Positions 1,834 through 4,244 of a stretch of DNA of 4,244 nucleotides are shown in pieces. The stretch is from a virus (taxonomy: Duplodnaviria; Heunggongvirae; Uroviricota; Caudoviricetes): the IMG/VR virus record IMGVR_UViG_648276659_000008; one strand, given 5' to 3'. Both the position numbers and the translations under genes were made by a program. Position 1 is the first letter of the stretch. Each line of letters starts with the position of its first letter. The notes beneath the pieces are model-generated. The model was not told the origin of the DNA, did not search any database, and worked only from the letters and a program-made list of their open reading frames with translations.

Positions 1834-2025
1834 TTAAAGACCTGCCGGGATTTCGTTATTATCCTGGTGAATGACTTTATCGACCGGGTAACAGTTACCG
1901 GGAATTTTCTGTTCGGTTGCTGCAGTCACACACTCCTGCATTGTCCTGTGAACACTGACTGCAATATCAACTGGCTCTCCGGAAACAAGAAAAACTGTCA
2001 GAACAAGTGCAAATGCTGTATTCAT
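1834..2025 (-). CDS. ydfD: YdfD-like small prophage lysis protein (63 aa) with hydrophobic signal/TM-like N-terminus
   Basis: MNTAFALVLTVFLVSGEPVDIAVSVHRTMQECVTAATEQKIPGNCYPVDKVIHQDNNEIPAGL. Closely resembles my recollection of K-12 YdfD, and is 63 aa as in K-12. AAGGA SD 8 nt upstream of ATG at 2025. Its start overlaps the dicB stop as ATGA (translational coupling). The track ORF begins at an upstream in-frame ATG (2079) that lies inside dicB and is less likely. Confidence 0.8.
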   Translation of the reverse strand: MNTAFALVLTVFLVSGEPVDIAVSVHRTMQECVTAATEQKIPGNCYPVDKVIHQDNNEIPAGL

Positions 2026-2210
2026 TGTGCACATCCTTTTTGTATCGGACGTAAACGGGCCAGCATTGAAAGAATGCATATTTTATTTAATAACTCCCGT
2101 TCGTGTTTTCTCTTGTTAATGGCATCTTCAGTAAATACAGGGTTACTGATAGTGACACCAATTTCAAAACAACCTTCAGACGTATTAACGTTTGGTAATA
2201 ACGTTTCCAT
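2022..2210 (-). CDS. dicB: DicB cell-division inhibitor (62 aa)
   Basis: METLLPNVNTSEGCFEIGVTISNPVFTEDAINKRKHERELLNKICILSMLARLRPIQKGCAQ. Near-identical to my recollection of K-12 DicB over most of its length. GAGGA SD 7 nt upstream of ATG at 2210. Position (~180 nt downstream of dicF, immediately upstream of ydfD) matches the Qin dicB operon. Confidence 0.93.
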   Translation of the reverse strand: METLLPNVNTSEGCFEIGVTISNPVFTEDAINKRKHERELLNKICILSMLARLRPIQKGCAQ

Positions 2211-2227
2211 TATCGCGTCCTCAACAA

Positions 2228-2384
2228 TGAATTTTGTGATGCAGTGCCTGGTGCCTCCAGGTGACGTTAACCAGTTAACAATTAACGCCGGGTTAGTTGA
2301 TGCTCGTTACGCCCGTAAAATACCGCCTTACTGCTTTAACTGTTCCGCGTGCGCATAGCCGCATTCACCGCATCACAAAATTCA
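2228..2384 (-). repeat. 15-bp perfect inverted repeat pair bracketing the dicF-dicB spacer (arms 2228-2242 and 2370-2384)
   Basis: Plus strand 2228-2242 tgaattttgtgatgc is the exact reverse complement of 2370-2384 gcatcacaaaattca. In the minus-strand transcript one arm sits just 3' of the DicF terminator and the other 5 nt upstream of the dicB SD. Confidence 0.7.
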
Positions 2385-2388
2385 CTTT

Positions 2389-2446
2389 AAAAAGGGCGGC
2401 AGAGCAGTCACGGAGTAAAACTGATACCGCCAAATGTCACCAGAAA
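2389..2446 (-). ncRNA. dicF: DicF small regulatory RNA (53-nt body 2394-2446 plus U-tract to 2389)
   Basis: Minus-strand sequence UUUCUGGUGACAUUUGGCGGUAUCAGUUUUACUCCGUGACUGCUCUGCCGCCC followed by UUUUU matches the DicF sRNA as I recall it, with GGCGG...GCCGCC terminator-like pairing. Sits between ydfC-like and dicB as in Qin. Confidence 0.9.
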
Positions 2447-2781
2447 ATTGATAACAGAGGGCGTTGTAGCGGGGTTGTCACTTAAGCGTATGGTCAACCT
2501 GACAACCCGGTGCATTTTCTGGAGCAATGGAGGAAACCCCAGCCATACTTACCGCCGCGCCATTTCGCGGAGTGCCACAACCGGAAGCGCACGGTCGAAC
2601 TAAATTTAACGACACCGTACAGAGAGACCAATTTCGCCGTGCGCTTTCGCGTTATGCCCTGACTTTTCAGGGACATATCCTTTCAGTAAACTGTCAGTGC
2701 CGGATGCTCACCCGTGTCCGGCGCACGCACTCCACCTGACCAGTGGAGAACTCCTTAATTACCAACCCTCAGGAGGGTGAA

Positions 2782-3060
2782 ATGGATAAAAAGCAAATTG
2801 AGGCCCTGCAATCTATTATTGAAGAACAAGATGAAGCTATCAGGATTCTTTCATATCGCACTGATATGATACTAAATATGCTTTCTGCATTAACGGCTGC
2901 GCTTGGTGGTACAAAAACAAACGTATACCGCGAAGTTGTTATTCAACAGATAGATAAATTTGAAAAAACCATACCAGGTATTAATGCTCATCTTGCAGAA
3001 CAAGAGAAAGACCATGCTCTTATGGCAATTTCTTCAGTAGCTCTCCCGAAAGTTGAGTAG
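2782..3060 (+). CDS. Hypothetical acidic 92-aa protein, antisense to the operon; AT-rich moron-like gene
   Basis: ATG at 2782 preceded by perfect AGGAGG SD (2771-2776, 5-nt spacer). Open frame of 92 codons in AT-rich DNA (about 37% GC by manual count, against roughly 43-55% in sampled flanking segments). MDKKQIEALQSIIEEQDEAIRILSYRTDMILNMLSALTAALGG... is predicted helical with one short hydrophobic stretch. I recognise no family. Confidence 0.6.
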   Translation: MDKKQIEALQSIIEEQDEAIRILSYRTDMILNMLSALTAALGGTKTNVYREVVIQQIDKFEKTIPGINAHLAEQEKDHALMAISSVALPKVE

Positions 3061-3421
3061 TTTTAATTGTTGTTTTGAAATAATCACTGCTTTCACATTT
3101 GAGTGATTTCATGGCAATCCAAATGCGGGCCTCTGTGCCTGCATTTGGTTCCAGTTGCTGTAGACGTTTTGCGTCTTCCAAAAGTAAGGCGATAATGTGT
3201 TTCAGCTTCTCATCATTTGCTTGATTCTTGTTTTCAGGCGAATTCTGTCCGCCGAATAGGCGCTTCTCTTCATACAGACCTATAAAGGCACGACGCACGT
3301 TACCGGATATAGTATCGATGGTTTCCTTTTCTACAGTACTCAGGTCAAGAGTCGCCAGTTGAGAGCGAACCACATTCGCTGCCATTTCCTGGAATGGCAT
3401 TGGTAAATCTTTAAATTCCAT
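3020..3421 (-). CDS. Hypothetical 133-aa protein in operon orientation; its 3' end overlaps the convergent plus-strand gene by 41 bp
   Basis: ATG at 3421 with GAGG SD 7 nt upstream; 22 nt downstream of the ydfC-like stop. MEFKDLPMPFQEMAANVVRSQLATLDLSTVEKETIDTISGNVRRAF..., soluble and helical-looking, no family recognised. The last ~100 nt (3020-3120) are much more AT-rich than the rest of the gene. Confidence 0.7.
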   Translation of the reverse strand: MEFKDLPMPFQEMAANVVRSQLATLDLSTVEKETIDTISGNVRRAFIGLYEEKRLFGGQNSPENKNQANDEKLKHIIALLLEDAKRLQQLEPNAGTEARIWIAMKSLKCESSDYFKTTIKTTQLSGELLKKLP

Positions 3422-3443
3422 TATTAGCCTCGTTGGTTAGCTA

Positions 3444-3662
3444 TTAACGTGGGTATGTAACCATTCTGGCAATGCTTAATGCCGCTGCTTTTTCCAGCCT
3501 GGTGATATCCTGCTCCAGAGCGGACAGATTTTCAGCCTGCTTAGTCCTGGCTTCATTGGCCCATTTCAGATCCTGCACTGCATTAATTTTCTGGCGCATC
3601 CACTCATAAAGTTCATCATCGGTATAGTCTGGCGCGATGATGACGGGTTCTCGTTTCTGCAT
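3444..3662 (-). CDS. ydfC: YdfC-like prophage protein (72 aa)
   Basis: MQKREPVIIAPDYTDDELYEWMRQKINAVQDLKWANEARTKQAENLSALEQDITRLEKAAALSIARMVTYPR. GAGGA SD 8 nt upstream of ATG at 3662. Size and position (third gene of operon) match Qin ydfC; sequence identity is a vague recollection only. Confidence 0.8.
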   Translation of the reverse strand: MQKREPVIIAPDYTDDELYEWMRQKINAVQDLKWANEARTKQAENLSALEQDITRLEKAAALSIARMVTYPR

Positions 3663-3691
3663 ACTGATTCCTCGCGGTGCTGTTTCGCTTA

Positions 3692-3820
3692 TCAGCCGTT
3701 AGATTTTCCCGAACTGGAAAGCGCCTGTTTAAATTCACTGAAGCTGAGAGCTTCTTCGCCTTCGGCAAGACCATCGAAGTATTCTTCGTAAGCCTTTTCC
3801 ATGATTGTGTCGAAATCCAT
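3692..3820 (-). CDS. ydfB: YdfB-like small acidic prophage protein (42 aa)
   Basis: MDFDTIMEKAYEEYFDGLAEGEEALSFSEFKQALSSSGKSNG. ATG at 3820 lies 1 nt after the ydfA-like stop (TGAtATG), with GGTGAG SD inside the upstream gene. 42 aa as K-12 YdfB. Not in the ORF track (below its size cut-off). Confidence 0.75.
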   Translation of the reverse strand: MDFDTIMEKAYEEYFDGLAEGEEALSFSEFKQALSSSGKSNG

Positions 3821-3821
3821 A

Positions 3822-3977
3822 TCACTCACCTGAGTTTCTTTCCAGCCAGCGACGGGCACCATTTTCGGTTTTAAACGTTTTGCTTTTGGTATACGTCATC
3901 GCGGTGAATGTGCCGTCCTGGTTGGGAAACACGCCGTACACCAGAGATTCGTTGTTGCCAAGCTCGATAGTATCCAT
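3822..3977 (-). CDS. ydfA: YdfA-like small prophage protein (51 aa), first gene of the operon
   Basis: MDTIELGNNESLVYGVFPNQDGTFTAMTYTKSKTFKTENGARRWLERNSGE. GAGG SD ~8 nt upstream of ATG at 3977. 51 aa and first after the promoter, as Qin ydfA (Rac ydaF is a paralogue). Not in the ORF track (below its size cut-off). Confidence 0.8.
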   Translation of the reverse strand: MDTIELGNNESLVYGVFPNQDGTFTAMTYTKSKTFKTENGARRWLERNSGE

Positions 3978-4077: not shown

Positions 4078-4174
4078 CAGTATGGCGTATGATATTTTTG
4101 ATTTGGTAACTATGTAAATGTTTTTTCAAGGGAAAAATATTAGTTATACAGCTGATTTGCAGAAGTTATGGCAC

Positions 4175-4210
4175 AAAAAAACCCGCCAAAAAGGCGGGTT
4201 TTTTTTTTTT
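4175..4210. terminator. Bidirectional rho-independent terminator (A7 - CCCGCC aaaaa GGCGGG - T12)
   Basis: Perfect 6-bp GC stem with 5-nt loop, flanked by an A-run on one side and a T-run on the other, so it works as an intrinsic terminator on either strand. On the minus strand it would end transcription coming from a gene beyond the window end (expected immunity repressor, dicA-like). Confidence 0.8.
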
Positions 4211-4244
4211 GGGTGGGGGGGGGGGGGGGGGGGGGGGGGGGGGG
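4211..4244. other. Terminal poly-G homopolymer (gggt then G30); probable sequencing or assembly artefact at a contig end
   Basis: Uninterrupted G run at the extreme 3' end of the window directly after a T12 homopolymer, typical of two-colour chemistry poly-G read tails or a homopolymer-induced contig break. Confidence 0.6.

Follow-up and report, generated by a model that had tools for sequence, protein, structure and literature searches.

A convergent gene pair in a prophage dicBF operon

The closest described arrangements and the present locus

The sieB gene of phage lambda, phage P22 and the Rac prophage is a superinfection exclusion gene that is embedded in the PL operon, has its own promoter and is expressed from the prophage. 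Morons of the classical type bring a promoter and a terminator of their own. We describe here a 4,244-nucleotide stretch of Caudoviricetes DNA (IMG/VR record IMGVR_UViG_648276659_000008; the whole stretch is referred to as the window) in which two small genes converge within a dicBF operon: gene A (3020..3421, minus strand; 133 amino acids, hypothetical, WP_000394529), which is read with the operon, and gene B (2782..3060, plus strand; 92 amino acids, WP_000358769), which is antisense to it. Defence/counter-defence pairs located in noncontiguous operons have been described as TaiEcA/AtiEcA of phi80 (PMC11364771) and Tha/Ith of Staphylococcus aureus 80alpha (PMC11087260), and their layout gives mutually exclusive expression in lysogeny and lysis (PMC11364771, PMC11087260). 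Morons are also known from lambdoid phages, HK97 gp15 being an example (cited in PMC11364771). In K-12 the dicBF genes form a polycistronic operon under repression by DicA/DicC, with a long untranslated leader ahead of DicF; both DicF and DicB are toxic and inhibit division, and the 3' end of the 53-nucleotide DicF is made by a Rho-independent terminator that lies downstream of ydfC (PMC5069750).

The locus resembles each of these systems in part. Lambda sieB (34482-35036, plus strand) is convergent with and abuts N (35037-35438, minus strand), and B is likewise opposed to an early-left operon; however, B has no sequence similarity to lambda SieB and is 92 rather than 184 residues long, neither A nor B was matched by the Pfam SieB profile (PF14163) at expect values (E) up to 0.01, and no obvious transmembrane segment was seen in B by eye. 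As in Tai/Ati and Tha/Ith, a gene placed antisense within a phage operon is partnered by the operon gene next to it, but Tai/Ati is located in the Q-controlled late operon of phi80 and Tha/Ith in the cI lysogeny operon of 80alpha, whereas A/B is located in an early-left operon. A tblastn search with the 92-residue B (allele B92) against 50,697 phage records gave no match, and phi80 was not among the 16 phage records listed as matches to the C-terminal part of A, so that A and B show no detectable homology to those pairs. B is moron-like in that it is present in only some related phages, differs in base composition and lies between conserved genes. It is unlike a classical moron in that scans for a promoter and a terminator of its own gave no convincing result, and in that the cassette extends into the neighbouring gene and provides the last part of that gene's reading frame. 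On present evidence A/B is a case of ordinary phage mosaicism, an arrangement of a familiar kind with two uncharacterised genes.

A prophage beside ompW in Escherichia coli (E. coli) VR50 is 100% identical to the window over 2400-3500, and the same sequence is present in many other strains; the window is an ompW-integrated lambdoid prophage carrying the dicBF early-left operon on the minus strand. The minus-strand order is ydfA, ydfB, ydfC, A, DicF, dicB, ydfD and exonuclease, with B, the sole plus-strand gene of the locus, between A and DicF. The DicF small RNA (2394..2445, minus strand; Rfam RF00039, 77 bits against a gathering score of 48) is encoded downstream of the A/B block in the same operon and is followed by dicB (2022..2210, minus strand; Pfam DicB). 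B is therefore nested between ydfC/A and DicF/dicB, all of which are on the minus strand, as in a noncontiguous operon, and it is head-on in orientation to the early (dicBF) operon, as the original prediction, made from the letters of the window, had stated. Because B lies between ydfC/A and the DicF leader, any operon transcript crosses B in antisense. The dicBF region of the K-12 Qin prophage has the same backbone, gene order, DicF and long untranslated leader as the window, but its site is empty, whereas the window has 656 extra bp with A and B.

We interpret the island rich in adenine and thymine (AT-rich) that covers B as an accessory cassette that lies reversed in the early-left operon and comprises B, its own ribosome-binding site, a conserved 5' leader and a short AT-rich 3' flank. 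An operon transcript reaches DicF and dicB only by passing through the cassette in antisense, a layout for which the term noncontiguous operon is used. In the repressed lysogen, B would be transcribed from its own promoter, and its product, a prophage-expressed accessory factor positioned like lambda sieB, would most likely act in exclusion/defence or host modulation. Firing of the operon would then silence B through convergent transcription and antisense RNA, and A, which would be made only at that stage, may counteract or partner B through its tail. We assign a probability of roughly 0.6 to this combined reading of anatomy, evolution and function. Its anatomical and evolutionary part, a swappable B cassette reversed in the dicBF operon, is very likely to be correct, while the proposed function, in which B would be a lysogen-expressed accessory factor and A its possible partner, is a tentative suggestion drawn from the analogies given above. 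The dicBF operon is a textbook locus, yet ~2% of complete E. coli genomes carry this uncharacterised two-gene insert directly upstream of the DicF leader, and any plus-strand transcription there would oppose the expression of two toxic division inhibitors.

Gene B and the variable site

Comparison with homologues shows that plus-strand B is a real accessory gene and that its protein is under purifying selection. B and its Salmonella homologue share 71% amino acid identity, with a ratio of nonsynonymous to synonymous substitution rates (dN/dS) of 0.245 at dS 0.74 over 92 codons. The PHROG profile phrog_18692 matches B at full length (residues 1-92, E 8e-63), and the annotation pipeline PGAP calls the gene in VR50. 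Relatives of B at 28-40% identity retain its length and motifs, and other E. coli prophages have, from the same start site, a 91-residue allele (B91) that shares 28% identity with B92 (E 1e-5). When 1.8 billion representative proteins were searched with a profile, the result was a tiny family of 12 representatives with 90-93 residues, which share an N-terminal helix, a SAL(T/S)xALGG motif and a C-terminal SVALP motif. B is predicted to be all-helical, with helices at residues 3-42, 48-59 and 69-85 in an AlphaFold2 model of modest confidence (mean predicted local distance difference test score, pLDDT, 68.5); the best match of this model in a Foldseek search of PDB and BFVD had an E of 0.38. A Shine-Dalgarno sequence, AGGAGG (2771..2776, plus strand), is located 5 nucleotides before the B ATG, and both the Shine-Dalgarno sequence and the ATG are kept before four B alleles, namely B92, B91, B77 and the Salmonella B93/B105. 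Several copies of B92 are frameshifted or altered in the C-terminal third (loci L047, L056-L059 and L050; proteins P0127, P0128 and P0137).

A and B, together with the B ribosome-binding site, make up a 656-bp block (2770..3425, both strands) that is absent from empty-site relatives. Alignment with phage Tritos showed that 2770-3425 is missing and that ydfC abuts the DicF leader, and in the empty site of K-12 Qin a 340-nucleotide ydfC-dicF gap contains no annotated gene. Since A is part of the same 656-bp indel, it is not a resident gene. B92 DNA was detected in 127 of 5426 complete E. coli genomes, which corresponds to 127 of the 4336 genomes matching the region. Other contents of the site were found as well. 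In PPompW/Stx phages a 135-residue A is accompanied by an unrelated 77-residue plus-strand gene, and only residues 1-50 of A and the Shine-Dalgarno sequence and ATG of B are conserved; further states are a 106-residue A with B91, a 124-residue A without B, and a 133-residue A that has the same tail and a different 57-residue plus-strand gene (B57). Thus B is absent from Tritos and K-12 Qin and replaced in PPompW, L075 and L099, which is the pattern of presence and absence associated with a moron. Each gene was also found without the other, A without B92 in L081 and L099, and B without an intact A in L093, L192, L193 and E. coli strain SE11. The pairing of the A tail with B92 is shared between E. 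coli and Salmonella at dS 0.7-1.6, indicating that the event is old and not recent.

In strain SE11 (L100) A is a pseudogene and B is intact, and the A/B pair is decaying in some lineages. B57 is located in L099 (E. coli CU37RT-2) at 2248-2421 on the plus strand, starts with MQVDIISPV... and has a good GGAGG site. A GC-rich hairpin (GC, guanine plus cytosine) lies after B57 and before the A stop codon; the equivalent frame in L066 has only ~22 codons.

The sequence immediately upstream of B is conserved along with the start site. A block of two hairpins (2700..2749, plus strand; CCGGA..TCCGG at 2700-2721 and CTCCAC..GTGGAG at 2731-2749) is located just upstream of B and is at the same time DicF leader on the minus strand. 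The region from -84 to -1 relative to B is conserved in six loci, including Salmonella L093, in which the upstream DNA is otherwise different. In L099 (2160-2215) the sequence of the second hairpin differs, yet its stem still forms, which hints at a conserved RNA structure. In L093 the leader also contains an extra plus-strand gene of 119 codons (2361-2720), immediately before the two hairpins; its B has a different C-terminus, and gene A is not adjacent.

The AT-rich island and the mosaic structure of A

The base composition of the region was determined by exact counts, which gave 37.3% GC for 2782-3060, 30.0% for 3061-3120, 51.7% for 3121-3180 and 36.0% for the 339-bp segment 2782-3120. These figures agree with the manual estimates on which an island over the plus-strand gene had been proposed. 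The most AT-rich 339-bp stretch of the window starts at 2780 and has 35.4% GC (window mean 46.5%, standard deviation 3.8). A maximum-likelihood three-segment fit over 2211-3700, compared with 200 shuffles, placed the island at 2780..3112 (both strands), with 35.1% GC; the segments on its left and right have 51.5% and 46.8%, respectively. The gain in log-likelihood was 11.6, higher than in all 200 shuffles (maximum 10.8), so the composition is not uniform, and the island differs in GC from both flanks, as the base composition of a moron would. The left edge is well constrained (2739-2817 within 2 log-likelihood units), the right one only loosely (3075-3248). The fitted right edge, 3112/3113, falls inside the 133-codon open reading frame (ORF) of A (3421..3020), where the original prediction had also placed it.

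A is a three-module mosaic that is matched by the PHROG family phrog_1363 over residues 1-131 (E 3.4e-45). Its N-terminal module (residues 1-55, MEFKDLP...; 3257..3421, minus strand) is common to proteins with several unrelated C-terminal halves: proteins of 104-166 residues with differing C-termini are 78-90% identical to A over residues 1-50/63, and PHROG families 6937, 2151 and 9419 match only residues 1-62 of A. The core (residues 72-103, KLKHIIALLLEDAKRLQQLEPNAGTEARIWIA; 3113..3208, minus strand) is near-invariant across Enterobacterales prophages in our alignment, and was found in E. coli, Salmonella, Citrobacter, Enterobacter, Cronobacter, Erwinia, Sodalis, Mixta, Hafnia and Serratia; the motif ELKH[IV]IALLLEDAKRLQQLEPNAGTEARIW at residues 72-103 matches profile positions 2-45 of phrog_30817, 12693, 32391 and 2982. 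The core is usually the N-terminus of proteins of ~40-120 residues, and A is unlike other core proteins in that an extra N-terminal part of 70 residues precedes it. The variable tail (residues 104-133; 3023..3112, minus strand) is AT-rich and predicted to be disordered, and the tails that follow ..ARIWIA are hypervariable between loci. The AlphaFold2 model of A is of low confidence, with a pLDDT of 60.8 overall and below 50 for residues 110-132. In the comparison of A with Salmonella, dN/dS was 0.49 for the tail and 0.13 for residues 1-100.

The core ends at nucleotide 3113, which coincides with the fitted compositional boundary at 3112/3113. DNA homology with Salmonella covers B, is undetectable over 3061-3112 and resumes at ~3113, although a weak alignment of the E. 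coli and Salmonella tail peptides is still obtained. The compositional boundary inside A is the junction of the core and tail modules. The segment 3061-3112 goes with A in E. coli, not with B.

Loci that carry the core number 222 in IMG/VR alone, and those with the MEFKDLP module number 433. Two side observations concern the core. It is near-invariant over at least 10 enterobacterial genera though synonymous sites are saturated (dS 1.6 against Salmonella), and in many prophages (loci L101-L190) it occurs as a stand-alone protein of 44-48 residues encoded in the early leftward operon, downstream of the repressor. We also considered an invertible segment and rejected it; the protein concerned (P0107, 139 residues), in which the first ~90 residues of A are joined to an opposite-strand translation of the DicF leader, comes from one 639-bp ENA contig that is most likely an assembly chimera.

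A and B overlap at their 3' ends by 41 nucleotides (3020..3060) that are coding on both strands, specifying residues 80-92 and the stop codon of B and residues 121-133 and the stop codon of A. The last 13 codons of A are thus the antisense of the conserved 3' end of B. The same 41-nucleotide overlap recurs in Salmonella L090, where the neighbour is a 71-residue core-only gene, and in contig L191, where it is an unrelated gene for a 214-residue helix-turn-helix protein. The end-peptides are alike: LSGELLKKLP in E. coli, LSEALLKKCT in Salmonella and IPEELLIRCS in L191. A terminal peptide of this kind (..LS.ELLKK..) thus closes the neighbouring gene in each of these contexts with a convergent relative of B. 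The C-terminal motif of B is kept in distant relatives, two of which (L192 and L193) have no overlapping neighbour. Since the motif is conserved even there, we infer that the 3' end of B is primary and that the terminus of the neighbouring gene is its antisense shadow. This is a clear natural example of a gene whose C-terminus is written by the antisense strand of its neighbour.

Competing explanations and the wider pattern

Of the alternatives to the cassette reading, the one that fares best is the strict form of the original prediction, according to which the recent arrival of an AT-rich moron in a resident early gene replaced the last ~33 codons of that gene or extended it by them. The coincidence of the compositional boundary with the core/tail junction, the antisense origin of the last 13 codons of A in three contexts, and the coming and going of B among related phages are all in accord with it. 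However, empty-site relatives lack A as well, the segment 3061-3112 travels with A and not with B in E. coli, and the A-tail/B pair is old, being shared with Salmonella. Moreover, when homologues were compared as the original prediction had suggested, the same C-terminus was found without B92: in ~42 complete E. coli genomes and in IMG/VR loci L060-L071, an A that is 87-91% identical retains the same tail through the stop codon. This is an outcome that the original prediction had itself named as refuting it. The tail of A can thus outlive B92. In these loci homology ends just beyond the A stop, and an antisense remnant of the last B92 codons is kept (..MAISSVAL..); they look like the product of a secondary replacement of the B92 body by B57. 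The idea of a newly arrived moron that took over 33 codons of a resident gene thus holds only in part, and in its strict form we regard it as unlikely. What stands of the horizontally acquired moron is that B is accessory and is swapped between related loci, not that it arrived recently; similarly, the C-terminus of A does have a module junction and does end in 13 codons antisense to B, but A is not the resident gene that the prediction required.

Two further explanations, both improbable and to about the same degree, assign the pair or its DNA a different role. In the first, A and B would stabilise the prophage as a toxin-antitoxin or addiction pair. Two small neighbours with overlapping 3' ends that are shuffled as alleles are suggestive of such a pair, and B gave a weak match to a RelB-like antitoxin model (NF048017; E 0.014, 15.6 bits). 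This score is far below the cut-off of 50 bits, however, type II pairs are co-transcribed whereas A and B are convergent, no toxin domains were detected in the PADLOC or Pfam searches, and the loci listed above show that each gene occurs without the other. In the second, the cassette would act in cis, with convergent transcription of B blocking leaky ydfABC read-through into dicF/dicB and the protein being secondary. The location of B exactly between ydfC/A and the DicF leader, where the operon transcript crosses B in antisense, would suit this role, as would the toxicity of DicF and DicB and the terminator downstream of ydfC that already makes the 3' end of the 53-nucleotide DicF (PMC5069750). 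It is difficult to reconcile with the purifying selection on the B protein, with relatives of B in prophages without DicF (L090, and L191-L193 as judged by listed genes only), and with the fact that most dicBF operons have no cassette, B92 being present in only 127 of the 4336 region-matching genomes. A last explanation, in which an AT-rich spacer happens to leave the plus-strand frame open and the island holds no gene, is disfavoured and scarcely credible: the ORF has no database function, no clear promoter or terminator was found and frameshifted copies exist, but the dN/dS of 0.245 over 92 codons at dS 0.74, the strong, correctly spaced Shine-Dalgarno sequence conserved before different alleles, the homologues at 28-40% identity that retain length and motifs, the PGAP call and the existence of a PHROG family all speak for a gene.

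A number of results weigh against the cassette reading itself. The search for functional homology of A, B and the alternative partners in Pfam, NCBIfam, PADLOC and PDB sequences returned nothing usable; the PADLOC-DB 2.0 defence models did not match B and matched A only at chance level (E 0.025-0.059, ~10 bits), and a PHROG search with A, B and the alternative partners reached only families of unknown function. Since neither these searches nor the fold searches with the B model gave a homologue of known function, a defence or exclusion role is argued from position only. A stricter scan of the window detected no plus-strand sigma-70 promoter; a speculative, weak sigma-70 candidate for B (2664..2692, plus strand; TTTTCA-17 nucleotides-TAAACT, 8/12 consensus) came from a relaxed scan only, and it is conserved in aligned E. 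coli loci, but loci without B have the leader that contains it too, and we give it no weight as evidence. Downstream of B the scan of the window gave no intrinsic terminator, so that a terminator of its own, as in a moron, was not seen, and the 3' hairpin at 3083-3109 does not outscore shuffled sequence (z -0.4); the L191 relative of B does carry a terminator-like hairpin. Composition alone is weak evidence of foreign origin, since dicB (2022-2210) is nearly as AT-rich as the island (36.5% GC; 0.29 GC at third codon positions). The same type of tail, type A, occurs with B92 and with B57, so that tail and partner are not always together. The frameshifted or altered copies of B and the A pseudogene of SE11 argue that A and B are not strictly co-dependent. 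Finally, clustering of tails and partners showed only a moderate association (adjusted Rand index 0.42). This clustering was confounded, since longest-ORF calls ran into shared leaders and merged partner families, and weight was therefore put on individual conserved pairs.

One such pair consists of the tail ..LKLIxxELK and the partner VRVELRNSE..LGLDKF, which overlap by 30 nucleotides in an Aeromonas phage, a Cronobacter phage and an E. coli prophage. Among 90 further core-carrying loci we distinguished 32 tail classes, 31 of which had a convergent ORF of at least 60 codons ending between -110 and +150 nucleotides from the stop (lenient background 0.435); this figure is supportive only, since the background for a nearby convergent ORF under the lenient rule is high (0.44-0.72). 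The convergent partner genes have 35-43% GC in the nine pairs examined, and in L098 a SieB-domain gene is located beside a B-type gene on the same strand. As judged from these loci, core genes would generally have a convergent small gene downstream, and their tails differ between loci.

The commonest partner of the core belongs to a family of ~95 residues (phrog_8894) that starts with xVRVELRNSExADYxxLHEKM and ends in LGLDKF. Loci with this type of partner include L005 (2741-3022), L006 (2735-3022, unannotated), L098 (2256-2549), L103 and L137, and in Cronobacter phage phiES15 the gene is not annotated.

An invariant core gene with a convergent, swappable small gene points to a recombination hot spot that may hold new exclusion or defence genes with self-immunity partners. 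A broader proposal would be that the core and the abutting convergent AT-rich genes, which comprise B92-like helical proteins, the VRVELRNSE..LGLDKF type, zinc-ribbon-like proteins and B57, form an undescribed, Enterobacterales-wide early-left hot spot of swappable lysogen effectors, each with a lytic partner whose specificity tail would arise by reading into the effector cassette. We consider this unlikely. If true, it would mean a new family of prophage defence/self-immunity modules and new C-termini made by antisense overlap.

The remaining features of the window are as follows. ydfA is located at 3977..3822 (minus strand; DUF1391) and ydfC at 3662..3444 (minus strand), and the Pfam matches on the proteins of the window included DicB, DUF1391 and DUF1482. 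Two Rfam matches fell below threshold, STnc100 at 2178-2396 (minus strand; 31 bits against a gathering score of 47), between DicF and dicB, and STnc370 at 4135-4210 (plus strand; 44 bits against 54), at a terminator near the end of the window; both probably reflect chance or a generic likeness to terminators. In related prophages, isrK and C4 antisense RNA genes scoring above their Rfam gathering scores adjoin a Rha-type regulator downstream of the A/B site (L075, 3702-3890; L099, 1442-1630); the window is without them. At 4184-4244 the window diverges from VR50 inside a terminator-like hairpin (CCCGCCAAAAAGGCGGG in the window, CCGACTAAGACGTCGG in VR50), and after this point it continues with a run of T followed by ~40 G, which has the look of an artefact of the contig end or of poly-G sequencing and not of a biological feature.

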